DNA from: Eledone cirrhosa
Taxonomy: Eukaryota
Length of the DNA: 64,000 bases
Assembly: GCA_964016885.1 (NCBI GenBank)
Contig: OZ024741.1
Coordinates: 149,916,001-149,980,000, forward strand
Reading direction: 5' to 3'
Part shown: positions 1,209 to 29,586 of the stretch, one piece after another
How positions within the stretch are numbered: the first letter of the stretch is position 1
Layout: each line of letters starts with the position of its first letter
Notes under the pieces: model-generated
Database searches by the model: none
What the model was told of the DNA's origin: nothing
What the model saw: the letters and a program-made list of their open reading frames with translations, nothing else
Made by a program: the position numbers and the translations under genes

Positions 1209-1256
<48 letters not shown>
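1209..1256. repeat. (TATC)n microsatellite, left end of the retrotransposon array
   Basis: Read directly from the sequence. Confidence 0.95.
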
Positions 1257-1480
1257 CTCTTTCTGTCTGACGCGTGGAACATCGCCGGTAAGCTTTTTTG
1301 TTAATTTCTATACAAAAAACCGAACTAATTGTTTGAAAAACCATAACATTTTGTAGATTAACCCCCAGGCTGAATTGTCAGCTGGGTGGCAATCTTATTT
1401 TTCGCCCCCAAAGGGGAGAAAATTTAATTTGAAATTAATTTGAAAACTGTTTAAAATTTTTGAATATTTTGCCATCAGCT

Positions 1481-1712
1481 ATGGCAAGCGTTCAAGGAAC
1501 GCTAGCGAACGTTGAAGAAGGAAAAAGAAAAGAAATAGACTTTAACGTTGCTAAAATTCTGCCTGTATCGAGGTAGTTAACAACAGAGCTTTGTGTAACG
1601 AAAGTGAAGTAGACAACACAAACAAAATTGAATCGCACAGTGAACCACACAGTATACAACACACTAAAATCAACAGAAAAAACAATTGACACAACTACAA
1701 ACGGAAAACTCG

Positions 1713-1770
<58 letters not shown>

Positions 1771-3541
1771 AATAACTTATACAGAAACAGTCACAAATCA
1801 TAATAATAACGTTACTTCTAACTCCGCATGTATTGGCGTCACCATGGAAACCAATATGAACAACAAGAATAAAAACAAGATCGAACTACACACAGTACAA
1901 CAGACGGAAAAAACAACAGAAAATAAAACCATTGACACAACTACAAACGGAAAACCCGACAACCACAACAACAATAACAATAACAACAACAACAACAACA
2001 CCAAAAAAAACTTTTGTGCAAACAGTCACCAAGACACAAGATTTCACGGATCTCGATATCTCCAATGCGAAACAGATGCTCTCTGAAGCAAAGGAGTTTC
2101 TGACTTTCGGTGAAAATGGGGGATTTCAGATAAACTCACCCCCAGAAATTCGTCTGGAAACATTTCGAAGGATAATTACCTTCAGAATTGTTTCAAATGA
2201 AACAAAAAAACCAGCATTCCTCAGTCAAGGGGAAATTGAGGCAACCTTAATAAAGATATTGCCAGACATTGACTTTATGCAGAGGGCGAAACAGTACGGG
2301 AGTATTTCGGTACTCCTCAAAAGCGAGGCCCTTGCACAAAGATACTCAGTGACGCCAATACTGTCACAAAAATACACCTTTTTCCCTACATACCTGGGAA
2401 AAAGGACACAAAAAATTAGAGTTTCAAACATACCACCAAATATTAATATTTGGTGGATATTGGCAGGATTTTTAGAGGAGAGAAAAGACACTATTCCCTC
2501 CATAAAAAAGTCCATCAGACACACCTGGTCTGGTACAAATTTGGAGATTCTGGTGCAAATGAGCCCGGAAAGAATCTCCAAAATACTAGAAAAAGTGATG
2601 GTGGACAACAACAGCCACATAAACATTGTAGTTGAGGGACGAAAACCACATTGTTTTCGTTGCAATAACACCACACACCTAAAGGCCTCCTGCCCTTTAC
2701 AAACACGCTCAACCAAAATAATACAAAAGAAAACACTGTTACCAACACCAACACCAAAGCAACCACCACAAGTACAACGACTGACGAAACGGGCAACCAC
2801 ACCAAAACAAACAGACACTCAACAACAACAGAAAAAAACAGAAACAACACCCTGAAGAACACAGCCCCACTCCATCCCACTCCATCAAACACTCCCACAA
2901 ACACACACACCGAAACACCACCACCACACAACATACCCCTACCCCACACACCTGACGATGATTATTCATCGACGGATGAAGCTGCTTCTCCTTCTTTAAG
3001 TGAAGAAGAGGGAGAGCCGCGGAAATCTAAAAAACAAAAAAAGAGACACCACAAAACCCCCAAAACTCCAAACACCAACACACACCCACAGACACAAACA
3101 AAAACACAAACAACACCATAGTCAAACATCCCCCTACCAGCAAAACCAACACCAACACCACCCCAAACACAAGCACCCACCATAAAAAGAAAACTCCCGG
3201 ACGAACAACAAACTAAAACAACACAACAAAAACATAAACAACAATACGCTTACATCAACACAAATAACAAGAGTTTGATGGAGGTCATCTCCCAAAACCC
3301 CAAGGTGGAGACGGAGGGGAAAACTTTCGTCAAAGCAGAATCGTCTCAACACCTTAAACTTATAAGGGTTTCTATGGAAACCTATAATGACCTAAAAAAT
3401 AAATTTTCACAGGACGTGGGCAACCCCTGCCACAAACCCATCAACCGCGTCCTGTTAAAATGTTTCCCCACCCCACCCAACACCCCATCCAGCACCTAAA
3501 TGGAGATTGAACAACCCGATCTCCAGGAAACGAAAAGGTAA
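1481..3541 (+). pseudogene. Copy 1 ORF1 (gag-like, CCHC zinc knuckle), disrupted
   Basis: CFRCNNTTHLKASC in ORF 1932-2855; Asn- and Pro/Thr-rich linkers; C-terminal block DVGNPCHKPINRVLLK; ends MEIEQPDLQETKR*; several stops and frameshifts. Confidence 0.8.
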
Positions 3542-3582
3542 GTGCACCTTTCGTCCTTTTTCTCCAACTCTTCTTCACCAAC

Positions 3583-6500
3583 ATGGCTAGTTTACGAGTT
3601 GGAACCGTGAATGTGCGTGGTCTAGGGATGCCCTCGAAACAGGGCCAACTTTTAAACGACCTTAGGTCACACAGTATGGATGTGATAGCCATCACCGAGT
3701 CCAGGATCCACAACAGGCAGCAACTACCCCCTACCTTCGGCGACTGTGAGATCTACGCATATCTCTGTCAGCCAGGAGGTGGAGGTGGAGTGACTGTCAT
3801 GTTTCGGAAGAACCTGGACGTCGGAGTACAGCAAGTATACTTGGACCCGGAGGGTAGACTGGTAGTCCTAGACGTGAACAGTATCGGAGGTGGAGCCTTC
3901 AGACTGGTGGCCGTTTATGCCCCGACCAGGCAATCACAATCACGGCCAGACTTCTTTAAGCGTCTAGAGTCTTTTCTGGGAACGTCTCGCTCCTTACTTT
4001 TAGTGGGGGACTGGAATGGTATCCTAGATGCACGATCGGAATACGTGGGAGCATGTCCCAGTAGAGCGGGGTGCAACAGCCTCAAAACTTTAATCGGCCA
4101 ATTCCAACTGGCCGATAGGTATCGACTGGATTTCCCGACTGCACCACAGTGGACGTGGGCAAACCGCAGTGGGACATCTAGATCGTATTTAGATAGGTTC
4201 TTCATTAGAGAAAGGGACAAGGAGATGTTAAGCTATCCACGAATGCACATGGTTGCCTATTCAGATCACAAGTTAGTCGTCTGCTTAGTCAACCGTGATA
4301 GAATACATAGACAGGGTCCCGGATACTGAAAGCTGAATGTATCGTTGTCGGCACGTAAAGCTTACAGTGAACGGATAAGTAGACTAGTCAAGCAACAGTT
4401 AACGGGAGCCATCGTCAACAATAGATGGTGGTAGTCTCTCAAGAAAGCAATTAGAATAGAATCGATAGGGTATAGCAGAGAGTTAGCCTTAGAGAAAAAC
4501 AGAATAGAAAGAGAACTAGTAGCCAAGGTAGAGGAGGCACTTAGTGGCAACGCGGCTAGAGTGTTAGCGTCGAGAACGGCACTGGACCAGTTCTTCGATG
4601 CGAAACACGAAGGCAGCGTGGTCAGAAGCAAAACACGTGCTCTAGGAAACGAAGGAGCGAAAGCTGTCAGCTGGGCCCGAGTGGCGGAGGCAACAAGTGG
4701 CAACAAGTCCACGATTCGGTCTTTGAAAGACCAAAACGGACGCGTGCTACTTGACCCCAAGCAAATGTGCGCAGCCTTTCAGCGGCACTTTGCGCGACTG
4801 TTTGAGCAGAACGACGGTGAGCCGAACGGGGCAATGGATTTTAGTTCATACCTCGACGGCCTGCCGCGTCTCTCGAACACGGACGCCGAGTTCTGCGAAA
4901 GACCGATTACAGACACTGAGATACGGGACGCTCTGGGCCGCTGCGGGAAACGCAAGTCACCCGGTCTAGATGGTCTACCCTACGAATTTTACATAGGCAT
5001 GCCGGACTTGTTCTCTGGCGTCCTCGAAGCTGTCTACTGCAATTGGCAGCAGAACGGGAGAATTCCCAGTTCTGCAGGCAAGGGCGTAGTAACGCTGATC
5101 AGGAAAGACAAGAACAAGGGGGACGAAATTAACAACTTCAGGCCCATAACTTTGCTCAACACAGAGTTAAAGATTTTGGCCAAGGTGCTAGCGACGAGGT
5201 TGGCGCTTGTCGTCGAGAACCTGGTAGGGAAAGCGCAAACGTGTGAAATCCCGACCAGGTCCATACACGGCAACCTCCACCTCATGCGATACATCATAGA
5301 GAGGGTGGGTAGTAAACTCGGCTTCGGTGGGGCTCTGATCAACTTGGATAAGTCTAAGGCATTCGATAGGGTCGACCATCGAGACTTGGAAGCGGTTCTC
5401 AAGACGGCCGGTTTCGGGCCCGTGTTCAGAGGATGGATCGAGGCGATGCACACCAGCATCTGCTCGAGGGTCAAGGTGAACGGCTACCTATCGGAGCCGT
5501 TCGCAATCACGCGTTCCATACGACAGGGGTAGCCTCTCTCCTCCATTCTGTATGTATTGACTCTAGAGCCACTACTGCAGAAATTGGAGCTGTTGCAGGG
5601 CATCCCTCTGTCATCTACTACCGCTTGACTGTCGCGCCTTGTCCCCGTGAACACCTCGCCAAGATGGAATGCATGCTCTTCCAATTTCTGTGGAAGAAGC
5701 AGGCTCCGCTGGTGAGGAGATCCGTCTGCTGCCAGCACCCTTTCAACGGAGGGCTGGGAATGCCGTGGCTGATGATGCGCAAACATGCGCTGAGGCTGCG
5801 GCAACTCCAGGTATTCCTCACCGACCCACAACCGGTGTGGGCACCGTTTGTGAGACAGGCTTTCCCACAGCTCGTCTCGCTGACGGAGCTGCAGTACTGG
5901 GTGAAGAAAAGACTGAAAACGATGGGCGCCTGGCACATTGAATGCGCTCAGGCGCTCACAGTCCTCTGGCAAGCGGGCGCAGCAATCAGTGGAGACTCCA
6001 CTTTGACATTCTATAGAGGGATTGTACGTTACAAGGGAGACGACGTTCTCGGAGAGACTCTGGGCGTCGAAGACGATGATCTCACCAGTCTGTTTGGTAG
6101 GACTTTCCGCCCGGGACCTATGGACAACTTCCAGAGGTCCCTGGTCTGGTAGTGCTACCGAGGAGCTCTACCGGTTCGTGACAAGATCTACAGGCACGGA
6201 CGCCCCGACAGGGATCCTTCCAAGAGGACGTGTGCAAGATGCGCGCAGGACATTGAAACAGTCCTGCACGCAATTGTACACTGCCCGGGCGTAACCGACC
6301 TGTGGAACTATGTGGAACAACTGCTGTCGCGTATGGGACAAATCCAGTTGACTGCCGAGTCCATAGTAAGGATCAAACCGCCAGACTCTTTCAAAAAACG
6401 AAAGAGAGGCGGTTTTTCTATGTACGGTGGCTATGGTGAAAGAAGTTATATGGTGGACGAGATTGAGAGGACTGAGGACAGATGCCTTTCTTTCCGGACA

Positions 6501-6648
6501 ACAATTGATTCCCTTCTTTAAGTATCACTTTAGAAGGAGAATCAGGGTGGAGAGAGAGGCACTGCACCCCAGTACATTTACTGAAAGGTGGGTGAATGAA
6601 GCGAAAATGGCCCGAGTGATTGGGCCTTCTCTGTTTATAAGCCTGTAG
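3583..6648 (+). pseudogene. Copy 1 ORF2: APE endonuclease - reverse transcriptase - C-terminal zinc finger, disrupted
   Basis: NVRG, GDWN, YLDR, SDH (APE); PGLDG, FRPITLLN, DKSKAFD, IRQG (RT); in-frame stops; deletion at ~5610 removes the YADD region. Confidence 0.92.
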
Positions 6649-7139
6649 GTTGAGGAAGAGAACAAAAGGAAGAAAGGAGCACTTGCACAACACGCTCCTG
6701 GAGTTGAGGGTTGTTCTATCGACGGGGTATTAAACAACCCATTTGTGGCGCTTCCCCCCTACTGGGGATTTCGATTGTTGTAATTGTTTGTTTTTATATT
6801 TTTTACACGACTGTATGTAAAATCTCCGGCATGTCTTTGTATTGTCCCCTTTTCTTGTGCGCCCTTGTGGCTAATAAAGAAATATATTTATCTATCTATC
6901 TATCCATCTATCTGTTTTACTTGAGACGTGTTCCAGTTCGCTGGTAAGTTTTTGTTGATTTTCTAAGTAAGAAATCAAAAATTTATTGTTAAATTTATTA
7001 CTATTTTATAGCTTGACCCCACGTCTGGACTTTCAGACGGTGGGTCAAGTCATCTTCACCCCTCCCTGGGGTGAAATTTTCGTTTGAAAAAAAAATTTCG
7101 CCGGTGAAAAAAAAGTGTAAACAGACCTTGCATTCAGTC

Positions 7140-9032
7140 ATGAACGCTGCGTTCATAACTAGAAGTGATGGAGAGGCGGTAAGAGTGTTAAGCTCGCAGT
7201 CACCTCCTCTCTCCACCTCATTGAAAGACATCGAAAATGTCGTCAGTTTTGAAAACACGATGTCGGACGTTGATTGTAACATCAACACTAACACAAACAC
7301 CAATAACATGCAAAATATAAACAACACCAACCAGAACAACAACAACAACAATAATGACAACAAGAACAACAACAGCAACAATGATAACAACAACACCACC
7401 AACAACAACAGCAACAATGATAACAACAACACCACCAACAACAGCAGCAACAATGATATACAACAACACCAGCAACAATAACAACAACACGAACAACTCC
7501 AAGAACAAGGAAAAGATTTCCTTTGCTCAAACCGTCCAAAAGAAGGAACTGTTCACATACCTTGACATTTCCAATGCTAGGGAAATGTTAAGCGATGCAA
7601 AACAGTATGTAACTTTTGGTGAGAGTGGTGCTTTCAGTATCACTTCTCAACAGTTACGCAGAGAAACTTTTCTAAAAACAGTAATTTTTAGGACTGTTTC
7701 AAATGTGTCGAAAAAACCAGTTCAATTATCCCAAAACGATATTGAACTGGTTCTGAAGAACTCCATGAAGGATATTGCCTTCATCCAAAAAGGGAAACTT
7801 TTTGGAAGCATTTCAGTGTTGTTGAAAGACCAATTGACGGCACAAAAATATTCTGTATCGCCTATTTTCTCCCCCCTTTACACTTTTCCTCCACATATAT
7901 GGGAAAAAGAACACAAAAAATAAAAATTTTGAACATTGCACCAAATGTGAACGTCTGATGGATTCTAACTGGCTTCATCGATTTCGACGAAGACACCATC
8001 ATTTCGGTGGGAAAGTCCTCCAGAGGCATATTCAATGGTACAAGCATGGAAGTTCTGGTCCAAATGAGGCCAGAACGGATAACTAAAATACCCCAACGTG
8101 TGCCTCTGGATGGAATTTTATGTTACCACTGTTTAAGCAGTGGTCATCTGAAGGCTTACTGTCCTCAGTTAACTAAAAAAAAGAAGCACTACTGCCAACA
8201 CCCAAAACAACAACACAACCACCACCACCAACACCACCACCACCACCACAACAACAACAACAACACGCAAACACAACCAAAACAAGAACAACAAACCAAC
8301 CTGCAAGCACAGTCCCACCCAGCACCACTCCACCTAAAACCACTGCAAAAACACCCACAAACACAACAGCTCCCCAAAACATACCCCTTCCAAATAACAC
8401 AGATACCACAACGGACGAGGCCCCCACATCATCACCAAGTGACGATGAGGGAGAGCCTCTCCGTTCGAAAAGAAAGAAGAAAAGACACCACAAGAACAAA
8501 AAAACAACAAACATCACTACAAACATACAACCACCAACACAAACAACACAAACATTACAAACAAAAACCCCCCGTCCCGAAAACAAAACCATGACATCAC
8601 TCCAAACACAAACACCTACAACAAAACGAAAGCTCCCACAAGAACAATAGACAAAAACCACCGCAACACAACAAGAACATTACACATACATAAACAGTAA
8701 AAACAAAACTTTAATGGAGGTCATAACCAACGACCGTTCGGTGAAAACCGAAGGGAGAACTTTTTTGAACTGTGTAGACAAACCTAATTTAAAGATGATT
8801 AGGGTCCTTACGGACACCTATAAGTCTTTAAAGGAAAACTTTCCTAAGGACGTGGGTAATCCTTGTGTTAAACCCATTAACCGCGTCCTTTTAAAAATTT
8901 TCCCCACCCTCACCCCAGACACCCCACCCCACCAAACATCTCCGTCCCCACCCCGCCGGAAACCACCCAGACAACCCCTCTAACACCCCCATGGAAACCG
9001 TGCGGCCTGATCCCCGGGAGACGAAGAGGTGA
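7140..9032 (+). pseudogene. Copy 2 ORF1, disrupted
   Basis: Homologous to copy 1 ORF1 (LDISNAREMLSDAK; CYHCLSSGHLKAYC knuckle; DVGNPCVKPINRVLLK); ends METVRPDPRETKR*. Confidence 0.8.
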
Positions 9033-9066
9033 GTGTTTTCTTCTCTTTTAACTTTTCAGAACCAAC

Positions 9067-9536
9067 ACGGCCAATATAAGAGTTGGATGTGTGAATGTAC
9101 GCGGCCTGGGGATGCCCTGAAAACAGGGCAAACTCTTAAACGACCTCAGGTCGCACAGTATGGATGTAGTAGCTATTTGCGAGTCCAGGATCCACAGCGA
9201 GCGACAGCTGGCCCCCCATCTTCGATGACTTTGAGATTTACGCATCTCTCTGTCGGCCGGGGGGTGGGGGCGGGGTTGCCGTTTTGCTGCGGAAACACCT
9301 TGGCCTCTTAACACAGACGGTACATCTGGACCCGGAGGGTCGACTGGTGGTCCTAGACGTTGACGGTAGTGAAGGTGGAGCCTTCAGGCTGGTGGCCCCA
9401 TCCGGGACACCGCGGCCAGACTTCTTCAAACGTCTAGAGACTTTTCTGGGAACGTCGCTTTCCTTGCTTTTAGTGGGGGACTGGAATGGATTCCTAGATG
9501 CACGTTGGGACTATGTGGGAGCATGTCCCGATAAAG

Positions 9537-9588
<52 letters not shown>

Positions 9589-12511
9589 CATCCTCAAACA
9601 GTTAATCGGCCGATTTGACCTGGCCGATAGATATCGACTAGATTTTCCGACTGTGCCACTGTGGATGTGGACTAATCGTAGCGGAACATCTAGATCGTAC
9701 CTAGATAGGTTCTAGTTAGAAATAAGGATAGGGACATGTTAAGCTGTCCACAAATGTTCATGGTTGCCTATTCAGATCACAAACTAGTGACCTGCATGGT
9801 CAACCTTGATAGAACCCATAGACAAGGACCCGGCTACTGGAAGCTGAACTTGTCGTTACCGACATGCAAAGCCTACAGTAGACGGATTAGCACTTTAGTT
9901 AAACAGCACTTGACAGGGGCCATTGTCAACAACAGATGGTGGTACTCTCTCAAGAGGGCAGTTAGATTAGACTCGTTAGTTTTTAGTAAAGAATTAGCGT
10001 TAGATAGAAATAGAATCGAGAAGGAATTGGTAGATAAAGTAGAAGAGGCAATTAGAAGTGGCAACGTAGCCAGCGTGCTAGCAACGAAAACGGCTTTGGA
10101 CCAGTTCTTCGACGCAAAGCACGAGGGCTGCGTTGTCAGAAGCAAAATACGTGCTCTGGGAAACGAGGGAGCCAAAGCTGTTAGTTGGGCCCGAGTGACG
10201 GAGGCAAAAAGTGGCAACAAGTCCACGATTCGGTTTTTGAAGGACCAAAACGGACGCGTGATACATGAGCCGAAGCAGATGTGTGCGACCTTTCAGCGGC
10301 ACTTTGCTCAACTGTTCGGGCAGGGCGACGCGCCGGGAGGGGCTATGGATTTTGGTCCATACCTCGACGGCCTACCGCGACTCTCGGACAGTGAGGCAAA
10401 GTTCTGCGAAAAGCCGATTTCGGCCGCTGAGATAGGGGACGCGCTGAGCCAATGCGGCAAATGCAAATCTCCAGGTCTCGACGGTCTACCCTACGAATTT
10501 TACGTAGCAATGCCGGACTTATTCTCTAGTCTCCTGGAAGCGGTCTACTGCAACTGGCAACAGAACGGGAGAATTCCCAGTTCTGTGACTGGGGGCGTAA
10601 TCACACTAGTCAGGAAGGACTAGAATAAGGGGGGTGACATAGGCAACTTCCGGCCCATAACTCTGCTAAACACAGAGTTACAGATTTTGGCCAAGGTGTT
10701 GGCAAAAAGGCTGGCGCTTGTCGTCGAAAACCTGGTGGGCGAAGCGCAGACATGCGCAATCCCGACCAGGTCCATACACGACAACCTCCACCTCATGCGA
10801 TACATCATAGAGAGGGTAGGGTGTAAACTCGGCTTCGGTGGGGCCCTGATCAATTTGGATTAGTCTAAGGCTTTCGATAGGGTTGACCATCGTTACCTGG
10901 ATGCGGTGCTCGAGGCGGAAGACTTCGGATCCGTGTTCAGGGGCTGGATTGCTGCAATGCACAACAGCAACATCTGCTCAAGGGTCAAGGTGAACGGCTA
11001 CTTCTCGGAGCCGTTCGATATCACGCGATCCATTCGATAGGGATTCCTTCTCTCCTCCCTTCTGTACGTACTGACTCTCGAGCCACTACTGCGGAAGTTG
11101 GAGCTATTGCAGGGCATCCCTCTGGAACCGGGACTGCGGAAAGCGGCATCGGCCTACGCTGACGACGTGACAGTAATGGTGTCGAGCGCCTCGCAAATCG
11201 AGGAAGTCGGCACCTTACTGAAGGAATACGAAAGGTTCACAGGAGCGAAGCTGAACCGGAACAAGTCCATCGGTTTGCAACTCGGATCGTGGAGAGGCAA
11301 ACCGATGCCTTCCGATGGCGTCGTCGGACGCTGGACGGAAGGACCGGTAAAGCTGCTCGTGGTCTGGTTTGGTCCGGACCTCCAGGTGGAGAAGAACTGG
11401 AACGAGGTGACGGCCAAGGTGTTTGCACTCACCCAGAAGTGGGCCGAGTGCAAACTATCCTTGAAAAGTCGAGCGGAGGTGGCGAACACTTTTATAGCGT
11501 TCGCCATCTACTACCGCTTGACCGTCGTGCCTTGTCCAGCCAAAACGCTCACCAACATGGAGCGCGCGCTCTTCCAATTCCTTTGGAAGAGGTGGGCTCC
11601 TTTGGTGAGAAGATCCATCTGCTGCCAACACCCTTCCAACACACTGCCAACACGCGCTCAGGCTGCGGCATCTCTACGTATTCCTCACCGGACAACCGGT
11701 GTGGGCCCCGTTTGTGAGGCGAGCCTTCCCACGACCCGTCTTGCTGACCGAGCTGCAGTCCTGGGTCAAGCAAAGACCGAGGAAAATGGGCGAATGGCAC
11801 ATCGAATGTGCTCAGGCGCTCACAGCCCTCTGGCAAGCGGACCCGGCGATCAGTGGAGACTCCACTGCGTCATTCTATAGAGGGTTGATCCGCAGCAAGT
11901 GCGACGATGTGCTCGGTGAAACTCTAGGCGTAGAGGAAGACGAACTGGCCAGTCTGTTCGGTAGGACCTTCCGCCCGGGACCGATGGACAACTTCCAAAA
12001 GTCCCTGGCCTGGCAGTGCTACCGAGGAGCTCTACCAGTTCGTGACAAGCTCTACAGACATGGGCGCCCGGGCAGGGACCCTGTAAAAAAGATATGTCCG
12101 AGATGCGTGCGAGACGAAGAAACCGTCGCGCACGCATTCATACACTGCCCGGGCGTCACTGACCTGTGGGGATATGTAGAACGACTATTGTCGCGGGTGG
12201 GACCAATCTAGTTGACCACCGAGTCCATTGTCATGATCAAACCGCCACCCTCCTTCAAAAACGAAGGAGAGGCGGTTTTCCTTTGTGTGATAGCTATGGC
12301 GAAAGAGGTTGTATGGTGGACAAGGTTGAAAGGGCTGAGGTCAGACACCTTTCTCTCCGGCCAACAACTGATTCTTTTTTTCAAATACCACTTTGGAAGA
12401 AGAATCAGGATGGAGAGAGAGGTGCTGTACCGCAGCAAGTTTTATGAAAGGTGGGTGAAAGTGGCGAGAATGGCCCGAGTGAATGGGCCTTCTCTCTATA
12501 TCAGCCTGTAG
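9067..12511 (+). pseudogene. Copy 2 ORF2 (APE-RT-ZF), disrupted; start codon position reads ACG
   Basis: GDWN, SDH, PGLDG, YADD, CPRC..H....C motifs across several ORF fragments; (GT)n expansion at 9541-9586. Confidence 0.92.
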
Positions 12512-12749
12512 ATTGAGGAAAAGGAGGAGGAGAGGAAAGGAGTACAAGCTCTTCGTACTCCTGGAGATGAGGGTTGCACATTTTTTCGGGGGTATGTGTT
12601 ACCCATATAAACTGTCTCCCTCTATTGGGGAAAATCGACTAACTTTTAAATTCCATCTGTGATAACATTTTACACGTTTTTATTGTATGTAAACTTCCCC
12701 CTTTGTATTTGTCCCCTTCTTTTGTGCCCCTGTGGCTAATAAAGAAATA

Positions 12750-12784
<35 letters not shown>

Positions 12785-12994
12785 TTATCTCGGAGAAGAT
12801 TGACGTGTTTTTGTTTCGCTCCTGCATTTTGTCGGAATTTATTACGAGAAGCGGTAGGTTTGTTTAAGAAACTTGTTATTTGTTGTGTTTAACCCCTCGC
12901 CTGGGCCTGCAGACGTTGGGTAAAATAAATTTCGCCCCTTTTTGGGGCGAAATTTAATAGTTATAAGTTGTCGATAAAAAGTCGTTTAGTGACA

Positions 12995-14822
12995 ATGGGC
13001 GCCATTAATACGACACATGCCACGCCCCCCAAGGAAAGTGATAGAGAGAAGGTAGCAGCACAACGCTGTAAACCTTCCCTCCTCACTCCCGCAAAAGACA
13101 CCACGAAATCAAAAGAAAAAATTGTGGAAATGGGTGAAAACCCCCAAAGTAACAATTACACAAACAAGAACAACAATGACAATAACAACACAACCAACAA
13201 CAGCAACAATGACAATAACAACATAACCAACAACAGCAATAATGACAACACCAACAAAGGAAAAAAGCAAGCCAACACGAATAACAACAACAACAATGAT
13301 AACAACACGAAAGAAAACGGACCCACATCTGCAGACTCCTTCGCACAGGCGGTCCGAGAAACGCAGGCATACAAGGCACTGGACATCTCGAATGCCAAGA
13401 AATTGCTGAAAGAAGCAAGGAATTGTGTAACTTTCGGGGAAGGTGGGTAATTCACAATTACCTCCCCCGAAGAAATTAGAAGGGACACAGTCCTCAGGAC
13501 CGTAATCTTTAGGACAGTTTCCAACACGACTAGGAAACCGGCTCAATTGTCCCAAAGTGAAATTGAGCTGGTTCTAAGTAGTGCTCGAAAGGATATCGCT
13601 TTCATACAGAAAGGGAAACTGTATGGAAGCATATCTGTTTTAATGCAAGATGAATTGGCGGCACGGAAATATTCTGTGTCGCCAATTGTATCCAAAGCAT
13701 ACACCTTTTTCCCCACATATTTGGGGAAAAGAACTCAAAAGATAAAAATCTCGGGCATCAGGCCAAATGCGAGCATTTGGTGGGTGCTAACGGGATTCTT
13801 AGAAGATGAGGACACAATCCTTTCGATAGGCGAATCCACCGGGGGCGTATTCGGCGGTAATGGCCTTGAAGTTCTGGTCCAAATGAGACCAGAACGGATA
13901 ACAAGAATACCGCAGCGTGTGTCCCTGGATGGAGTCGCCTTCATAAACATTTCTGTTGAGGGCAGGCGACCTTCATGCTACCACTGTTCAAGAAGAGGTC
14001 ACCTGAGGGCTTCCGGTCCCCTTTTAAATGCCCCCCCAAAAAGACGCTTCTGCCCACTCCATATACACCACCACCACCACCACCACCACCACCACCACCA
14101 CCACCACCACCACCACAACAACAACACGAAAAGATAACAACACAAGACACTGTCCCACCCAACCCCTCCCCACCTAAAACAAATACAAAAGCAACCACAA
14201 CAAAACCCCAAAATATACCCCTCCCCAACAACACGGACGCGGACCCCTTATGAACGTCACCCAGTGACGAAGAGGGAAAACCCTTTCAACCTGTAAAAAG
14301 AAAGAAAAGAAGGCACCCCATTAACAAAAATACAACAAACACACAACCACCAGCACAAACAGAACAAACATCATAAACAAAAAAACCCACCCCTCCCGAA
14401 AACATAACACATACTACAAAACGCAAACACACACAAGAATAACAAACAAAAACAATCACAACACAAAAACAGTATACATACATCAACACAAACAACAAAC
14501 ACTTGTGCAAACAATAGACAAAGACCCTTCGGTGGAAACCGAAGGGAAAATGTTCACCAATGCGGCGACTAAAGCGCATTTAAAAAAGATTAGGGTCCCA
14601 AGGGACACCTACGCAATGCTCAAACAGAACTTTCCCGAGGACGTGGGAACCCCTGTACTAGACCTAGCAACCGCGTCCTCTTGAAATGTTTCCCCACCAA
14701 ACACCCCCACCCCACCACACACTGATGTCCCCACCACATCCCTAACCACCACCCCACCAAACAACCCCTCCAACAACCCCATGGAAATTGTGCAGCCTGG
14801 TCCCCAGGAGAAGGACAGGTAG
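12995..14822 (+). pseudogene. Copy 3 ORF1, disrupted
   Basis: LDISNAKKLLKEA; CYHCSRRGHLRASG (last Cys lost); ends MEIVQPGPQEKDR*. Confidence 0.8.
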
Positions 14823-14844
14823 GTGTCTTTTCCTTTTTCTCCAC

Positions 14845-17800
14845 TCTGGGCCTCGCAACACGGAATGTACACCTGGACCCGGATGGTCGACTGCTGGTTC
14901 TAGACGTAGGTAGTAGTGAAGGTGGAGCCTTCAGGCTGGTGGCAGCGTATGCCCCATCTGGGACACCGCGACCGGACTTCTTCCAACGCCTAGAGACATT
15001 TCTGGGAACGTCTCGCTCCTTGCTTTTAGTGGGGGACTGGAATGGTATCCTGGATGCACGTTGGGACTATGTAGGGACATGTCCCGATAGAGGGGTGTGT
15101 AACAGCCTCAAACGGTTAATCGGCCGATTTGATCTGGCCGATAGATATCGACTAGATTTTCGGACTGTGCCACGGTGGACGTGGACTAATCGCAGCGGAA
15201 CATCTAGGTCGTACCTAGATAGGTTCCTAGTTAGAAATAAGGATAGGGACATATTAAGCTGTCCACGAATGTTCATGGTTGACTATTCGGATCACAAGTT
15301 GGTGACCGGAGTGGTCAACCTTGATAGAACCCATAGAGAAGGACCCGGTTACTGGAAGCTAAACTTGTTCTTACCGACAAACAAAGCTTATAGTAAGCGG
15401 ATTAGCACTCTAGTTAAGCAGCGGTTGACGGGAGCAATTGTCAACAACAGGTGGTGGGGCTCTCTCAAGAGAGAAATTAGAATAGAAACAATAGGTTTTA
15501 GTCAGGAATTAGCATCAGATAGGAATAGAACTGAAAGGGAATTAGATAGCTAAAGTAGAAGAAGCGATTAGGAGGGGCAACGTGGCCGGCGTGCTGGCGT
15601 CAAGAACGGCCCTAGACCAGTTCTTTGACGCGAAGCACGAGGGCTGTGTTGTCAGGAGTAAAATACGTGCTCTGGGTAACGGGGGAGCCAAAGCTGTTAG
15701 CTGGGCCCGAGTGACAGAGGCAAAAAGTGAAAACAAGTTCACGATTCAGTCTTTGAAGGACCAGGATGGACGTGTGATCCTTGAACCTGAGCGGATGTGC
15801 GCGGCCTTTCAACGGCGCTTTGCACGACTGTTCGGGAAGGGCAGCGGGCCGGGTGAGGCCATGAATTTCGGTCCATACCTCGACGGTCTGCCGCGGCTCT
15901 CGGACGGGGAGTCAAAGTCCTGCGAAAGGCCGATTTCAGCCGCTGAAATAGGGGAAGCGCTGAGCCAATGCGGCAAACGCAAATCTCCCGGTCTCGATGG
16001 TCTACCATACAAACTGTAAGTAGCGATGCCGGACTTGTTCTCCGATCTCCTCGAGGCGGTCTACTGCAACTGGCAACAGAACGGGAGAATACCCAGCTCT
16101 GTGACCAAGGGCGTAGTCACGCTGGTGAGGAAGGACGATAACAAGGGGGATGACATAGATAACTTCAGGCCCATAACTCTGCTAAACACAGAGTTAAAGA
16201 TTTTGGCCAAGGTGTTAGCGAAGAGGTTGACGCTTGTCGTCGGGAACTTGGTGGGAGAAGCGCAGACATGTGCAATGCCGTCCAGGTCCATACACGACAA
16301 CCTCCACTTCATGCGATACATCGTAGAGAGGGTAGGGAACGAACCCGGCTTAGATAGGGCCCTGATCAACTTGGATCAATCTAAGGCGTTCGATAGGGTC
16401 GACCATCGGTACCTGGATGCGGTGCTTGCGGCGGCAGGCTTCGAACCCGTTTTCAAGGGCTGGATTGCTGCAATGCACAGCAGCAACACCTGCTCGAGGG
16501 TCAAGGTGAACGGCTACCTCTCGGAGCCGTTCTAAATCGCGTGATCAATTCGATAGGGATGCCCTCTCTCCTCCCTTCTGTATATGCTGGCTCTCGAGTC
16601 ACTACTGCGGAAGTTGGAGCTATTGCAGGAATCCCCTTGGAACCGGGATTGCGGAAAGCGGTCTCGGCCTACGCCGATGACGTGACAGTAATGGTGCCGC
16701 GCGCCTCGGAAATCGTGCAGATCGGCACCTTACTGGAGGAATACGAAAGGTTTACAGGAGCCAAGCTGAACCGGGACAAGTCCGTCGGTTTGCAACTCGG
16801 AACGTGGAGAGGCAAACCGATGCGCTCCGACGACGACATCGGACGCTGGACGGAGGGACCGGTGAAGCTGCTCGGGGTCTGGTTCGGATCGGACCTCCAG
16901 GTGGAGAAAAACTGGGACGAGATAACGGGCAGGGTGTTTGCACTCGCCCCAAAATGGGACGAGTGCAAACTATCCCTGAAAGGTCGAGCGGAGGTGGCGA
17001 ACACTTATATAGCGTCCGTCATCTACTACTGCTTGACCGTCGTGCCTTGCCCAGCGAAAACGCTCACCAAAATGGTGCGCGCGCTCTTCCGATTCCTTTG
17101 GAAGAAGCGGGCCCCTTTGGTGAGAAGATCCATCTGCTGTCAACACCCTTCGAACGGAGGGCTGGGGATGCCGTGGCTGACGATGCGTAGACACTCATTA
17201 AGGCTACGGCACCTCCAGGTATTCCTCACCGGTCAGCCGGTGTGGACCCCTTTTGTGAGGCGAGCCTTTCCAAGACTCATCTCACTCACCGAGCTGCAAT
17301 CCTAGGTCAAGCAAAGACCGAGAAAAGTGGGCTTCTGGCACATTGAATGTGCCCAGGCGCTCACGGCCCTTTGACAAGCGGATCCGGCAATCAGTGGAGA
17401 CTCAACCTCAACATTCTATAGAGGACTGGTGCGCAGCAAGTGCTACGACGCTCTCGGAGAGGCTCTGGGCATGGAGAAAGACGAGCTAGCCAGTCTGTTC
17501 GGTAGGACGTTTGGCCCGGGACCGATGGACAACTTCCAAAAGTCCCTGGCTTGGCAGTGCTACCGAGGAGCTCTACTCGTTCAGGACAAGCTCTACAGAC
17601 ACAGGCGCCCGGGTAGGGACCCCTCGAAGAAGATCTGTCCGAGATGCGTGCGTGACGAGGAAACCGTCGCGCACGCATTCGTACACTGCCCGGGTGTTGC
17701 TGACCTGTGGGGCTATGTGGAACGACTATTGTCGCGGGTGGGACCAATCCGGTTGACCACCGAGTACATTGTCACGATCAAACCGCCTCCCTCCTTCAAA

Positions 17801-18052
17801 AACGAAGGAGAGGCGGTTTTCCTCTGTGTGACAGCTATGGCGAAAGAGGTTGTATGGTGGACTAGGTTGAAATGGCTGAGGTCAGACACTTTTCTCTCCG
17901 GCCAACAACTGGTCCTTTTTTTCAAGTATCATTTTAGAAGAAGGATCAAAATGGAGAGAAAGGTGCTCTACCTCAGCAAGTTTTATGAAAGGTGGGTGAA
18001 AGTGGCGAGAATGGCCCGAGTGAATGGGTCTTCTCTCTATATCAGCCTGTAG
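14845..18052 (+). pseudogene. Copy 3 ORF2 (APE-RT-ZF), N-terminus deleted, disrupted
   Basis: Inter-ORF spacer is joined directly to LGLATRNVHLDP; GDWN, SDH, DQSKAFD, YADD and CPRC motifs are present. Confidence 0.92.
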
Positions 18053-18300
18053 GTGAGAGAGGAGGAGAAGGAGGAGAGGAAGGGAGCACCCGTTCTTTGT
18101 GCTCCTGAGGAGGAGGGTTGCACATTTTTTTCGGGGGTGTGTGCGACCTACGTCAACGCCCTCTCCCTATTGAGGACTTCGATTGTTGAATTTGATTTGT
18201 TATATGTTTTTACACGTCCTTTAAAATGTATGTAACCCCCCTCCCCCCTTGTATTTGTCCCAATCTTTGATGACCTGGTGGCAAATAAATAGAAAGTTAC

Positions 18301-18370
<70 letters not shown>

Positions 18371-18372
<2 letters not shown>

Positions 18373-21300
18373 AAAGAGGACGTGGGTCCCCCCTGCGTCG
18401 GGTCCATTAATCGTGTCCTTCTAAAAAACTACCCCTCCCCCTCCCCAAACACCCACACAACTTCAAACACCCCAACCACACAACACACTGATGCCCCTAC
18501 ACTTCCACAACCCCCCTCCCCCCCACCCAACCCCCCCCCACCCTAATGGAAATTGTGCAGCCCGATACCCGGGACGCAGAGAGGTAAGTGCCTTTTCTCT
18601 TCACCACCAACATGGCTATGCTAAGAGTAGGCTGTTTAAATGCGCGTGGCCTGGGCTCAACTTGGAAGAAGCAATGCTTCTAAATGACCTCAGGTCACAA
18701 CGTATAGATGTGATGGTTATTTGCGAGGCCCGGATCAGCAACGTGCGACAGCTGGCCCCCACCTTTGATGACTTTGAGATGCACGCATCTCTCTGTCAGC
18801 CCGGAGGTGGGGGTGGGGTTGTCGTTCTGCTGCAAAAACATCTGGGTCTCGCAACACAGATGGTACATTTGGACCCGGAGGGTCGACTAGTGGTTCTGAA
18901 CCTTGGCAGTGGTGAAGGCGGAGCGTTTAGGTTGTTAGCCGCCTACGGCCCTTTCGGGTCAATGCGGCCGGACTTCTTCCATCGTCTGGAGACTTTTCTA
19001 GGGACGTCCCGCTCCTTGCTATTAGTGGGGGACTGGAATGGTATCCTAGATGCACGCTGGGACTACGTAGGGGCCTGTCTCGATAGAGAGGGGTGTAATA
19101 GCCTCAAAGGGTTAATCGGTCGATTTGATCTGGCCGATAGATATCGACTAGATTTTCCGACTGCGCCAACCTGGACTTGGGCAAATCGTAGCGGATCATC
19201 TAGGTCGTACCTAGATAGGTTCTTAGTTAGAATTAAGGATAAGGACTTTTTAAGTCGTCCAAAAATGCGCATGGTTGGCTATTCAGACCACAAGTTAGTG
19301 ACCTGCATGGTCAACCTTGACAGAACTCATAGACAGGGACCCGGTTACTGGAAGCTCAACTCGTCCTTACCGGCAAGTAAGGCTTACAGGGACCGGATTA
19401 GCACTTTAGTTAAGGAGCGGTTGACGGGCGCCATCGTCAACAGCAGGTGGTGGGGATCTCTCAAAAGAGAGATTAGAGTAGTCTCTATAGAATTTAGTAA
19501 GGAGTTAGCCTCAAATAGAAATAGGAAGGAAAGGGAGTTGGTAGATAGTGTAGAAGAGGCAATTAGAAGCGGCGACGTGGCCAGAGTGCTAGCGTCGAGA
19601 ACGGCCCTGGGCCAGTTCTTCAACGCGAAACACGAAGGCTGCATCGTCCGAAGCAAAATACGTGCTCTGGGAAACGAGGGGACCAAAGCTGTTAGCTGGG
19701 CCCGCGTGACAGAAGCCAAAAGAGGGAGCAGATCCACTATCCGGTCTTTGCGAGACCAGGATGGACGGGTGATCCTTGAACCTAAGCAGATGTGCGAGGC
19801 TTTTCAAAAGCACTTTGCCGGATTGTTCGGAAGAGGCGAGGAGCCGGTTGGGGATGTGGACCTCGGTCCATACCTCGACGGCCTGCCGCGTCTCTCGGAC
19901 AGGGAGGCGAAGTCCTTCGATGAGCCGATTTCAGCCGCTGAGATAGAGGACGTGCTGAGCCAATGCGGCAAACGCAAATCCCCGGGTCTCGATGATCTTC
20001 CATACGAACTATATCTAGCTATGCCGGACTTGTTCCCCGATCTCCTCGAGGCGGTCTACTGCAACTGGCAACAGAACGGGAGAATTCCCTGTGCTTTGAC
20101 CAAGGGCGTAGTCACGCTAGTGAGGAAGGACGAGAACAAGGGGGACGATATAAATAATTTCAGGCCCATAACTCTGCTAAATACAGAGTTACAGATTTTG
20201 GCCAAGGTGCTAGCAAAGAGGTTGGCGCTTGTCGTGGGCAACCTGGTGGGAGATGCGCAGACATGTGCTATCCCGTCCAGGTCCATCCACGACAACCTCC
20301 ACCTCATGCGATACATCATAGAGAGGGTTGGGAACGAACCCGGCTTTGGTGGGGCCCTGATCAACTTGGATCAATCTAAGGCATTCGATAGGGTCGACCA
20401 TGGTTACCTGGATGCGGTGCTAGCGGCGGCAGGCTTCGGACCCGTTTTCAGGGGCTGGATCAATGCCATGCACAGCAGCCGCATCTGCTCTAGGGTCAAG
20501 GTGCTCCGAGAGGTAGCCGTTCGAAATCGCGCGGTCCATCCGACAGGGGTGCCCTCTCTCATCCCTTCTGTATGTAATGACTCTAGAGCCACTGCTGCGG
20601 AAGTTGGAGTTGTTGCAGGGCATCCCGTTGGAACCGGGATTGCGGAAAGCGGTGTCGGCCTACGCCGACGACGTAACAGTAATGGTGTCTACGGCCTCGG
20701 AAATCGGGGCGATCGGCACCTTACTGGAGGAGTACGAAAGGTTTACAGGGGCTAAGCTGAACCGGGACAAGTCGATCGGTCTGCAACTCGGCACGTGGAG
20801 GGGCAGATCGATGCCCTCCGATGGCGTCGTCGGGCGCTGGACGGAGGGCCCGGTGAAGTTGCTCGGGGTCTGGTTCGGACCGGACCTCCAGGTGGAGAAA
20901 AACTGGGGTGAGGTAACGAACAGGGTGTTTGCACTGACCCAGAAGTGGGCCGAGTGCAAACTGTCCCTGAAAGGTCGGGCGGAGGTGGCGAACACTTATA
21001 TAGCGTCCGTCATCTACTACCGCCTGACCGTTGTGCCTTGCCCAAGGGAAACGCTCGCCAAAATGGAGCGCGCACTCTTCCAATTCCTTTGGAAGAAGCG
21101 GGCTCCTATGGTGAGGAGATCCATCTGCTGTCAACACCCTTCGAAAGGAGGGCTGGGGATGCCGTGGCTAATGATACGTAAACACGCATTAAGGCTACGG
21201 CACCTCCAGGTATTCCTCTCCGGTCAACCGGTGTGGGTCCCGTTTGTGAGGCGAGCCTTTCCTAGACTCGTCTCACTCACCGAGCTGCAATCTTGGGTCA

Positions 21301-22266
21301 AGCAAAGACCGAGAAAACTGGGCGCCTGGCACACCGAGTGTGCCCAGGCGCTCACGGCTCTCTGGCAGGCGGACCCGACTGTCAGTGGAGAATCCACCTC
21401 GTCATTCTATAGAGGGCTGGTGGTTAGCAGGTGCGACGACGCCCTCGGAGAATCCCTAGGCATGGAGGAAGACGAACTGGCCAACCTGTTCGGTAGGACA
21501 TTCAGCCCGGGACCCATGGATAACTTCCAGAGGTCCCTGGCCTGGCAGTGTTACAGAAGGACTCTGCCCGTTCGAGAAAGGCTCTACAGACACGAGCGCC
21601 CGGGTAGGGACCCCTCGAAAAAGATCTGTCCCAGATGCGTGTGCGACGAGGAAACCGTTGCACACGCATTGGTACACTGCTTGGGCATTGCTGATCTGTG
21701 GGGCTATGTCGAACAACTGCTGTCAAGGGTGGGACCGATGCGGTTGACCACCGAGTCTATTGTAACGATCAAGCCGCCTCCCCTCTTCAAAAACGAAGGA
21801 GAGGCGGTGTTTCTGTGCGTAATAGCCATAGCGAAAGAGGTTGTATGGTGGACGCCTCTGAAAGGACTGAGGTCAGACACCTTTCTCTCTGGCCAACAAC
21901 TGGTCCGTTTCTTCCGATATCATTTCGGAAGAAGGATCAGGATGGAGAGAGAGGTGCTGCACCCTAGCCGTTTTTATGAAAGATGGGTGAAAGTGGCGCG
22001 AATGGCCCGTGTGAATGGACCTTCACTCTACATCAGACTATAGGTGAGGAAGATGAAAGACCAAGGGAGCACCCCTTCTCTGTGCTCCTGAGGAAAAGGG
22101 TTGCACACTTTTTTTGAGGATTTTGTTATAAATTTTATTCTGTTATATTTTATTTTATTTTTATATTTTGTTATTGCCTCCTCCTTATTGAGGACGCCTT
22201 GTTTTGTAAACTCCCCCCATTGTACTTGTCCCACTTTTGATGCCCCGGTGGCAAATAAAAGAAACA
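18371..22266 (+). mobile_element. Tx1/L1-clade retrotransposon copy 4 (5'-truncated within the ORF1 C-terminus)
   Basis: Begins at the EDVGPPC..INRVLLK block right after (TATC)n; AATAAA at 22254; (TATC)n 22267-22291. Confidence 0.92.
18612..22043 (+). pseudogene. Copy 4 ORF2 (APE-RT-ZF), lightly disrupted
   Basis: ATG at 18612 (MAMLRVGCLNARG); frameshift near 18670; micro-inversion and frameshift at 20501-20523; ORFs 18491-20755 and 20577-22043 carry all motifs. Confidence 0.93.
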
Positions 22267-22493
22267 TATCTATCTATCTATCTATCTATCTTGATAGAGT
22301 AAGACACGCTTCACATCGGCTCCGCTATTCCATCGGGATTTACCCTTACTATTGTAAGTACCGGATAAATTTTTCAGTGCAACACATTTGGAACACTAAC
22401 CCCTGTTTTTTAGGGAAACATTTTTGCATTTACCCCCTTTTAAGGGGGTAAAATAAATATCTATTTTTGCCGAAAAATTTCTTTCTTGGCAGC

Positions 22494-24322
22494 ATGGCGG
22501 AAAAGATGGCAGAGATGTCTGCCATTAGCTCTGCCACGCCCCCCAAGTCTGAAGAACAAAAAATAATTACAACAAAATTAGACAATGAAACAAACAAAGA
22601 AAATGAAAAAACAAATGTTAAGGAAAATGAGCAAACAGAAAACAAACAAACAGAAAATAATACAAATAACAACAGGGCAACTTTCGCCCAGAAAACAAAA
22701 CAATCCATTACATACACACCAATTGACCTAACTGTCGCCAGAGAAAAACTGGCCGAAGCAAAGAAACACATTGTTTTGGGGGAGAACGGAATGTTTTCCA
22801 TTAACCCCCCCCCCCAGAATTCAAGAAAGCCAGAGCAGAAAACACAGTTCTCTACAGAACTATACTGAACCAGACAAGAAAGCCAGCACAGCCCAGCCAA
22901 ATGGAAATAGAGTTAGTCCTAAAAGACTATATGAAGAATATTCTCTTCATACGAAAGGACCGACTCTATGGCAGCATTTCGGTCCTAACAAGAGACAAGG
23001 AAACGGCGGAGAAGCTTTCCTTAAGCCCACTCTCATCGACAACATATAGCTTCTATCCCTCCTACATGGGTAGAAGAACACAGAGAGTAAAAGTAAAAAC
23101 AATGCTGCCCACAATGGACTTCTGGTGGGCTATTGCTGGCTTCATTGATATGGGCGAAGACACAATGCTGTCAATGGGGAAGGCAACTGGAGATGCATTC
23201 CTGGGAATGGGCCTCGACATACTAGTCCAAATGAGGCCCGAAAGAATAGCAAAAATCCCGGATCGCATCTGGCTGGATGACCTTACCCCAATAGACATAA
23301 TTGTAGAGGGGAGAAGACCAGCATGCTATTTATGCATGGAAAGGGGACACGTTAAGGCTAACTGCCCGAAACGTATCCCCCAAAAAGGACTATTGCCCAC
23401 ACCCACCACAAACAGTACACAAACACCACCCACCTCCAAAAATACACTAATACCACACACAGCAAACAAAATACAGACACCACCAACCACAAACACAACA
23501 CAAACATCACCACCACCAGCACCAAACACAAGCACGACACAAAAATCACCACCACCAACCACAACACAAACACCACCATCACCAACCACAAGCACGACAC
23601 AAACATTACCACCACCACCACAAAACCCATTCCAAACAAATAATAAAAAAAACAGTAACAAATCTACCCCTCCCGCAAAAAAAAAACAACCACACAACAC
23701 GTCCCTCCCACCTAGCGCTGAAGAGTTTCCCCCAACTTCTGAAGAAGAAGGAGGAGAAGCCTTCAGACAAGTTAAAAGAAAAAAAAGAAAACACACACCC
23801 AGCACACCACAAATAACCCACACACAAACACCAACTCCAATCAAAAACACCCCACCCTCAACAAACAAAAATAAATCTGCGCCTCCCCTCTCCGAAACAT
23901 TGACAGCATCACAAAAAAAGACGTTGCAATACACATATATAAATAAAGAAAACAAAAAACTGGTTAAATTAATAAACAATAACCCTATGGTGCAGACCGA
24001 AGGGCCAAACTTTATCTCAACAGAGAACTTCACCCATTTAAAAATGATAAAGGTCCCTCTGGACCTTTATCGTTCCTTAAAAGAACAATTTAGACGGGAC
24101 GTGAGCCCCCCCTGTTTAAAACCGTTGAATCGCGTCCTCTTGAAAGATTTCCCCATAACCGCCCCTCTCCCTGACACAACTCCAAATACCCCAACCCCAC
24201 CACACACGTGTACCCCCACACCACCACAAAACATCCCTCCACCCAACACACCTGATGCCATGGAAATTACGCAACCCGGAGAGGTAAGTGCTTTTCTTTC
24301 TTCACTTTCAACACCAAAATAG
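22494..24322 (+). CDS. Copy 5 ORF1 (gag-like nucleic-acid-binding protein, CCHC knuckle); frameshift at C-run 22805-22815
   Basis: ORFs 22467-22868 and 22901-24322 join across a poly-C run; CYLCMERGHVKANC; Pro/Thr linker; KRKKRK basic patch. Confidence 0.85.
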
Positions 24323-27300: not shown

Positions 27301-27760
27301 CTACAGACACGGGCGCCCGGGCAGGGATCCCGCGAAAAAGATCTGTCCCAGATGCGTGCGCGACGAGGAAACCGTTGCGCATGCACTGGTACACTGCCCG
27401 GGCGTTGCCGATCTGTGGGGCTACGTCGAACGACTGCTGTCGCGTGTGGCGCCGATTCGATTAACCGCCGAGTCTGTGGTGAACATCAAGCCGCCTCCTC
27501 CCTTCAGAAATGAAGCAGAGGCGGTCTTTCTGTGCGTAATAGCCATGATGAAAGAGGTTGTGTGGTGGACGCGCCTGAAAGGACTGAGGTCGGGTGACTT
27601 TCTCTCCGGCCATCACCTGGTTTACTTCTTCCGATACCACTTCGGAAGAAGAATCAGGATGGAGAGAGAAGTGCTTGGTCCCAGACAGTTTTATGAAAAA
27701 TGGGTGAAAGAAGCGAGAATGGCCCGTGTAAATGGGCCTTCTCTCTACATTGTTCTGTAG
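24319..27760 (+). CDS. Copy 5 ORF2: APE endonuclease, reverse transcriptase, C-terminal CCHC zinc finger; frameshift at G-run 24517-24528
   Basis: LRVGCLNARG, then a 1094-codon ORF with GDWN, YLDR, SDH, PGLDG, FRPITLLN, DQSKAFD, IRQGCPLS, YADD, CPRC-x-H-x-C; start position reads ATA. Confidence 0.93.
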
Positions 27761-27991
27761 GTGAAGAAGTGAAGAGGAAAGGGGGAGCGCCTCCTCTCTG
27801 GGCTTCCCCCGCGAAAAGAGTTGCACACTTTTCGGGGGTATGTGCAATCCCCAACACGCCCCCTCCCTTTTGAGGACTTTTTATTGTTATATTATTATTG
27901 TTATTCCTTTTTTCTTTACTCGATTTATGTAAACTCCTCCACTGTGTAAATGTCCCCTTCTTTTGTGCCCTCGTGGCAAATAAATAGAAAT

Positions 27992-28050
<59 letters not shown>

Positions 28051-28057
28051 GCCCCCC

Positions 28058-29418: not shown

Positions 29419-29586
29419 TATCTATCTAGCCCCCCTCTCTCTCTATATATATATATTGTACAAGAGTGTTGTTTATCTTAGTTGTTACGTAGTAACTTCC
29501 TGATGATAACCACTTCACTACTGGATGGACGTGCATGGACACCGGCATATCACAATGATTGCATAACTGCACCAATGATTGCATAA

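Follow-up and report, generated by a model that had tools for sequence, protein, structure and literature searches.

The 64,000-nucleotide stretch of Eledone cirrhosa DNA analysed here (contig OZ024741.1 of assembly GCA_964016885.1, positions 149,916,001 to 149,980,000 of the forward strand; hereafter the window) carries at 1262-29419, on the plus strand, an array of six long interspersed nuclear element (LINE) copies arranged head-to-tail, designated c1 to c6, each of which follows a (TATC)n run and four of which (c1, c2, c3, and c5) are full-length. The leaders of these four, which precede the first of two open reading frames (ORF1 and ORF2), contain a segment bounded by GT and AG that, judging from its sequence, is likely a retained intron. 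The copies, their target runs and the candidate leader introns are as follows.

1262..6888, plus strand: LINE copy c1, full-length, decayed; ORF2 with a 379-nt deletion
6909..12749, plus strand: LINE copy c2, full-length, decayed
12791..18300, plus strand: LINE copy c3, full-length, decayed; deletion at the ORF2 start
18371..22266, plus strand: LINE copy c4, 5'-truncated inside the end of ORF1
22292..27992, plus strand: LINE copy c5, full-length, best preserved of the copies
24476-27760, plus strand: open stretch of c5 ORF2, 1094 aa, with EN, RT, and zf-RVT
28051..29419, plus strand: LINE copy c6, 5'-truncated, 97% identical to the 3' end of c2
1209..1268, 6889-6904, 12750-12781, 18302-18369, 22267-22290, and 27993-28048, plus strand: (TATC)n target runs, one before every copy
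1288..1478, plus strand: candidate leader intron of c1, 191 nt, CCG/GTAAGC..CATCAG; ORF1 ATG at 1481
6944..7137, plus strand: candidate leader intron of c2, 194 nt, CTG/GTAAGT..ATTCAG; ATG at 7140
12854..12989, plus strand: candidate leader intron of c3, 136 nt, GCG/GTAGGT..GTTTAG, with a weak acceptor; ATG at 12995
22354..22492, plus strand: candidate leader intron of c5, 139 nt, ATT/GTAAGT..TGGCAG; ATG at 22494

The eight splice motifs and their coordinates listed in an earlier sequence-only reading of this DNA proved exact, GT..AG being present in all four full-length copies, and the acceptor does stand close upstream of the ORF1 start, with its AG 2, 2, 5, and 1 nt before the ATG in c1, c2, c3, and c5, respectively. 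None of the four leaders holds any other ATG, and the ATGs at the leader ends start ORF1-like frames, with ATPPK near the start common to c3 and c5. The donor variants (GTAAGC, GTAAGT, and GTAGGT) all fall within the splice consensus, and the three bases preceding them differ in all four copies. Using dinucleotide shuffles of each leader as a strict null, a donor together with a YAG 1-5 nt before the ATG arose with a probability of 0.002-0.014 per copy; a looser definition, with GTRRG at any place, YAG within 10 nt, and a purine imposed at -3, gave 0.021-0.097 per copy, with a product of 5e-6 if the copies are taken as independent. Across the LINE array both motifs accompanied 15 of 360 ATGs on the plus strand (the four under study included) and 7 of 323 on the minus strand, and in the remainder of the window 2 of 409 and 3 of 433. 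By these counts, the splice-motif feature exceeds chance. A search of the window for copies precisely lacking the intron segment, comparable to SpIREs, recovered none of the four junctions.

The same reading held that the leaders barely align, and here it has to be corrected. The leaders are collinear at 60-69% identity, with z values of 4.3-11.1 in five of the six pairs and 0.4 for c2/c5, so the copies do not represent four independent cases. One inherited donor-acceptor pair is shared by c1 and c2 and a second donor register is common to c3 and c5 (leader identity inside the two pairs, 69% and 64%), so that the signals arose independently about twice and each origin is preserved in two copies; neither register pair has a GT at the donor place of the other. 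Within the first 25 nt of all four leaders (joint chance 0.0013) there is a motif resembling RGACGTGY, which serves Drosophila LINEs and Penelope as a downstream promoter element (PMC2377424).

1268..1275, plus strand: RGACGTGY-like downstream-promoter motif of c1, 2 mismatches
6924-6931, plus strand: the same motif in c2, 0 mismatches
12801-12808, plus strand: the same motif in c3, 1 mismatch
22302-22309, plus strand: the same motif in c5, 2 mismatches

The donor follows this motif at 19 nt in c1 and c2, at 52 nt in c3 and at 51 nt in c5, and our reading of the two registers is that the function was kept while the place of the donor moved. A second donor-like word of c2, GTAAGA at 6967, stands 23 nt past the first donor and near the c3/c5 register, and is a possible intermediate in such a move. 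The promoter-like motif lies just 7-16 nt inside the element. The spacing of the Drosophila downstream promoter element is about +28; if that spacing applies, the start of transcription would fall within the (TATC)n target itself.

Besides the splice sites, the candidate introns share a YTRAC-CC word at the base of a first predicted hairpin, in all four cases, and a second predicted hairpin.

1358..1362, plus strand: branch-point-like word of c1, TTAAC, at the base of predicted hairpin 1
7013-7017, plus strand: branch-point-like word of c2, TTGAC, same position
12889-12893, plus strand: branch-point-like word of c3, TTAAC, same position
22396-22400, plus strand: branch-point-like word of c5, CTAAC, same position
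1405..1416 (c1), 7059-7071 (c2), 12935-12947 (c3), and 22433-22448 (c5), plus strand: predicted hairpin 2 core (CCCC-loop-GGGG)

The leader donors pair with U1 at -8.2, -8.7, -8.6, and -5.6 kcal/mol in c1, c2, c3, and c5, and among the GTs of the first 2.2 kb they rank first of 63 in c1, second of 92 in c2, and third (tied) of 86 in c3. In the same order, the last 20 nt before the acceptor hold 14, 11, 10, and 12 pyrimidines and the AG-free zone extends over 58, 11, 6, and 46 nt, the acceptors of c1 and c5 being good. With the predicted hairpins formed, the distance between the branch-like A and the AG would drop to about 25-42 nt, and TTAAT words lie nearer to the AG in c1 and c3. The z values for folding are -2.8 to -5.7 for whole introns and -2.4 to -6.9 for the hairpin region, and 79% of the hairpin alignment cells are paired, compared with 72% in shuffles (four sequences), so that covariation is suggestive only. 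Splicing is predicted to cut the leaders to 28-68 nt and to change their folding from -47 to -75 kcal/mol into -3 to -11 kcal/mol. Two other arrangements were rejected: pairing between the 5' and 3' untranslated regions (UTRs), since the cognate duplex was clearly the lowest in only one of the four copies, and splicing of the leader donor straight to ORF2, which has no AG directly before its start.

A second pair of splice-like sites was found at the other end of ORF1 and at the end of ORF2.

3538..3543 (c1), 9029 (c2, GTGAGT), 14819 (c3, GTAGGT), 18584 (c4), and 24284 (c5), plus strand: second donor, AG/GTAAGT, overlapping the ORF1 stop, five of five copies
6646..6648 (c1), with the others ending at 12511, 18052, 22043, 27760, and 29179, plus strand: ORF2 stop TAG, acceptor-like and preceded by a pyrimidine-rich run, six of six copies

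The pattern AG/GT(AA/GA/AG)GT occurs exactly five times on the plus strand of the 28-kb array, every time at an ORF1 end, and never on the minus strand. Pairing of these donors with U1 (-10.8 to -12.0) is stronger than that of the leader donors, and the three different stop codons that ORF1 uses there are all compatible with the donor consensus. The leader acceptor and the second donor would thus bracket ORF1 as exactly one exon of 1.8-2.1 kb, and by its boundaries the whole of ORF2 looks like an intron. Joining the second donor to the ORF2 stop is predicted to rebuild Arg-stop in c3 and c4, to make the end two residues longer, in a shifted frame, in c5, and to lengthen the product by 27 or 49 residues in c1 and c2. 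Past the second donor there is a pyrimidine run able to base-pair with a purine run that follows the ORF2 stop (in c1, 3538-3590 with 6646-6693), with a z of -7.2 in c1 and -2.0 in c5, while the pairing in c2-c4 was not above shuffles. At 24270-24322, c5 has a 14-nt gap right before the second donor, its ORF1 stop being shifted, and it does not have the ORF2-start ATG found in c1 and c4. The internal deletions of c1 and c3 were considered as splicing products and rejected, as their ends have no GT..AG.

Among 19 sequencing runs listed, none was recorded as RNA. Contigs from four public sequencing runs could be placed on 22292-22625, the c5 leader being the only leader covered. No splice joint was listed in any of the four runs; these contigs lose rare variants and show presence only, so the result speaks neither for nor against splicing or spliced retrocopies. 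In run X6 (organism C), all eight contigs over position 22356 have an A>G change that turns GTAAGT into GTGAGT, and no other letter was listed at 22354-22355, 22357-22359, or 22476-22506. The X6 alignments have loose ends behind 22361, 8 nt into the intron (two contigs), and before 22476/22479, 14-17 nt from the intron end (five contigs), and one contig extends to 22397 with 15 differences over 96 nt. The sole contig of run X5 (organism B, 22292-22538) spans the leader with three differences, none at the GT or the AG, and one contig (22324-22539) of run X4, which bears the same organism label, crosses both splice sites unspliced. The X4 set is small, with an A13 loose end and no cover before 22323; depth and uncovered parts, including the intron gap of X6, carry no inference. 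A second X4 contig departs from the c5 leader at 22352, one base before the donor boundary, into at least 255 unrelated letters absent from the window; it may stem from a variant copy whose leader was spliced to host sequence, or from a genomic copy that has been rearranged. A join within the copies of the array was excluded for this loose end, as its 23-nt piece has no match in the window at up to three mismatches.

Weighing these observations, we give a slightly better than even chance to the reading in which the leader intron is real and incompletely spliced, the spliced RNA serving as the ORF1 message while the unspliced RNA is the source of ORF2p and the template for copying. The leader stretch of 136-194 nt would be a spliceosomal intron removed from part of the transcripts only, and the spliced RNA would be the ORF1 message, in the simplest case with ORF2 removed too. 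The unspliced bicistronic RNA would give ORF2p, which would bind in cis and copy it, and the intron would hence be kept in new copies, while a leader-spliced RNA, if copied, would lose intron-borne sequence and become a dead end. A switch between retention and splicing may lie in the hairpins, where the branch-like word is partly paired and would come nearer to the AG. The earlier interpretation is upheld in part: an intron explains the sequence best, and it is plausible that spliced and unspliced RNAs exist side by side, but the argument that unspliced RNA must be the preferred template for an intron to persist in a retroelement is too strong in view of human L1 and Penelope. An intron can be kept by three routes: it may be spliced out only rarely, its spliced copies may be dead ends, or the spliced RNA may be excluded from copying; if the leader intron and ORF2 were removed on the same molecules, ordinary cis-preference would exclude the spliced RNA without any special choice of template.

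An extended version, which we put forward tentatively and consider on balance unlikely, would make this LINE family a three-exon gene, with a leader exon, ORF1 as an exact exon, a 3' exon bearing the poly(A) signal, and ORF2 as the second intron. An ORF1 message of host-like form would arise by double splicing, only the unspliced RNA would give ORF2p and be copied by cis-preference, and the hairpins at the branch point and around ORF2 would set the ratio. If true, this would be a LINE with a separation of message and genome like that of retroviruses, and the element may look 'self' to surveillance of intronless transcripts.

Several points weigh against a functional leader intron. The motif classes were picked post hoc, with the data already seen, and because the copies share ancestry the probability product overstates the case. 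The c5 donor pairs with U1 at just -5.6 kcal/mol and is outside the top 4 of 54 GTs, and the acceptors of c2 and c3 are weak, with 11 and 10 pyrimidines of 20 and rival AGs at 11 and 6 nt upstream. A distance of 93-121 nt separates the branch-like A from the AG, well outside the usual range of 18-40 nt, and YTRAC arises by chance at 0.33-0.49 per copy. The hairpins fold just as well on the opposite strand, and their covariation is thin, with a two-sided change in 2 of 17 pairs and equally high values in 168 of 500 shuffles. In c5, predicted splicing puts T in place of A at -3 of the first ATG, and an ORF1 exon of 1.8-2.1 kb is long for coupling both splicing events. Moreover, the conserved 5'UTR donor of human L1 is nearly unused (PMC5860796).

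The strongest alternative, a possibility of lesser though real weight, is that the donor is a landing site for the U1 small nuclear ribonucleoprotein at which cutting is rare or absent; its role would be to stimulate the internal promoter or to keep the A-rich ORF1 from being polyadenylated prematurely, the AG being partly start-codon context. ORF1 consists of 38-43% A, with 4, 1, 0, and 4 AATAAA words in c1, c2, c3, and c5 and none in the ORF2 region; the donors of c2 and c3 are better than their acceptors; the X4 and X5 contigs bridge both sites unspliced; and in the Arabidopsis element EVD binding of U1 prevents premature termination independently of splicing (PMC5580714). However, such a site needs no YAG 1-5 nt before the ATG, which was seen in all four copies (0.07-0.17 per copy with a purine at -3; product 1.6e-4), the alignment of X6 starts again 14-17 nt before the AG end, and the ORF1 of c3 is without AATAAA.

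It is less probable, and in our view doubtful, that the motifs belong to an internal promoter acting at the DNA level, composed of factor sites and inverted repeats, whose likeness to splice sites is a side effect, any splicing being rare and harmful. The RGACGTGY-like motif of all four leaders, with 0-2 mismatches, and inverted repeats that fold on either strand agree with such a promoter, and the human L1 donor sits within a RUNX3 site (PMC5860796), but a factor site should keep its flanks and its place, whereas the present donor has different flanks in each of the four copies and occupies two registers; in addition, the second donor on the ORF1 stop codon is left unexplained. Finally, functionless GT/AG words of AT-rich leaders, inherited from one or two ancestors, would be compatible with the homology of the leaders (60-69%) and with loose donor words in 14-46% of shuffles, but this is very improbable since it requires two donor origins, each retained in two copies with leaders 69% and 64% alike, a consensus-keeping change in another organism (the GTGAGT of X6), and five of five donors at the ORF1 stop.

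An incompletely spliced leader intron would be of interest because LINE RNA is regarded as a single unspliced bicistronic molecule, both message and template, for which splicing is harmful (PMC5860796), and because stably retained introns are seen as peculiar to Penelope-like elements, where their significance is unknown (PMC8557442). If the reading is true, a LINE family with two ORFs, in which subfamilies 68-84% alike retain a leader intron and ORF1 forms an exact exon, would have a second way to an excess of ORF1p over ORF2p. It would also provide a simple system for asking why retroelements keep introns, including as a shield from silencing of intronless transcripts, which has been shown in human for HUSH (PMC8770142).

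As to the element itself, pairwise identity among the copies is 68-86%, with the exception of c2/c6. ORF2 matched the Pfam families Exo_endo_phos, RVT_1, and zf-RVT (the last at 25.2 bits, below its cut-off of 27.5); its nearest solved relative is human L1 ORF2p (E value of 6e-116, compared with 2e-37 for R2), and among 31 homologues the closest named one is an Argonauta hians gene model, at 63%, which points to an octopod as the probable host. The Pfam scan of ORF1 returned no match and homologue searches with ORF1 returned none either; a CCHC knuckle (CxxCxxxxHxxxxC) is readable in c1, c2, and c5, and ORF1 look-alikes in Atlas carry zf-CCHC/RRM (score 0.90-0.92). Related loci were found in no viral contigs and no prokaryote genomes, and among metagenome contigs there was one distant 1.5-kb locus at 28%. 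From the architecture and the microsatellite targeting we infer an L1/Tx1-type LINE; the 31 homologues include no named Tx1 reference. A Penelope-like element was ruled out by the APE-type nuclease, the two ORFs, and the lack of a terminal repeat within any copy in self-comparison. Rfam gave 12 weak matches, none reaching the family gathering score and none inside a leader, hence no ribozyme or known cis element. At the 3' ends (e.g., 12738-12750 and 27979-27993), AATAAA and a few bases pass directly into (TATC)n, with no poly(A) tail. Elsewhere in the window, a repeat of about 200 bp resembling a short interspersed nuclear element occurs in three copies 87-91% alike, one at 690-884 before the LINE array and two in tandem after it (29694-29892 and 29903-30106). 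At 39351-50663, a 12-bp unit forms an 11.3-kb tandem array with an open frame of 3001 codons, Thr/Ser-rich and then Pro-rich, which is either a satellite or a mucin-like exon.

Among L1/Tx1-type elements, the Tx1-clade Kibi, Koshi, and crocodilian Tx1 likewise have an ORF2 with endonuclease, reverse transcriptase, and zinc finger, a CCHC-type ORF1, and insertion into simple repeats, but they insert into (TC)n, (TTC)n, (TTCC)n, and (TTTC)n rather than (TATC)n, and the available portion of that description mentions no intron (PMC4494074). In Octopus vulgaris, 13 recently active L1-Tx1 families were reported, again with no mention of introns in the portion available (PMC13282606), and nothing on a conserved LINE leader intron appears in the accessible parts of PMC9341512 and PMC9115989. 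A literature search, with Repbase and most subscription papers outside its reach, found no LINE, of Tx1 type or otherwise, in which a sense leader intron is conserved. Introns are present in the antisense RNA of TART, alongside which L1, Tad, kangaroo-1, Penelope, and Athena are cited (PMC1636488), and thus differ from the sense leader intron proposed here.

In the Ty1/Copia element EVD of Arabidopsis, splicing gives the structural-protein message shGAG, the unspliced RNA is the genome, and U1 blocks premature termination; EVD differs in being a plant long terminal repeat (LTR) element whose intron, in the protease region, is coupled to early termination, with no leader intron (PMC5580714). 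Human L1, an L1-type LINE with a 5'UTR donor whose spliced copies lose leader sequence, as those of the present element would, has a long-conserved donor that is mostly unused and acceptors that shift within the UTR or ORF1. When supplied with a promoter, its spliced RNA reaches about 70% retrotransposition in cis, compared with about 7% for the resulting copies on their own promoter; these copies are dead ends because promoter sequence is lost, and SpIRE97/622 amount to about 1.8% of full-length human L1 copies (PMC5860796). Unlike the human donor, which is explained by the RUNX3 site, the donor of the Eledone cirrhosa element changes its place and flanks, and its acceptor abuts the ORF1 ATG in every copy.

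In leader layout, the candidate introns resemble the 5'UTR introns of Penelope and Chlamys-3_cRei, which are short, lie behind an RGACGTGY element, and are kept in genomic copies (PMC2377424; PMC8557442). The order of motifs in the Penelope leader, RGACGTGY-like and then candidate donor, recurs in all four leaders of the full-length copies. In Drosophila virilis, Penelope has a 75-bp intron 46 bp past the start site, behind RGACGTGY, and both spliced and unspliced RNA have been found, most transcripts being without the intron; its deletion abolishes reporter protein and not RNA (PMC2377424), and selection among copies can keep an intron in this way. The retention of introns in Penelope-like elements has been ascribed to an unusual mechanism, and these elements differ from the present LINE, with its two ORFs and APE-type nuclease, in having a GIY-YIG nuclease, pseudo-LTRs, and one ORF. 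In Penelope and Chlamys-3_cRei the splice sites are conserved between relatives 67% alike and both RNA forms have been found, while in the Eledone cirrhosa element the corresponding arrangement is known from DNA.
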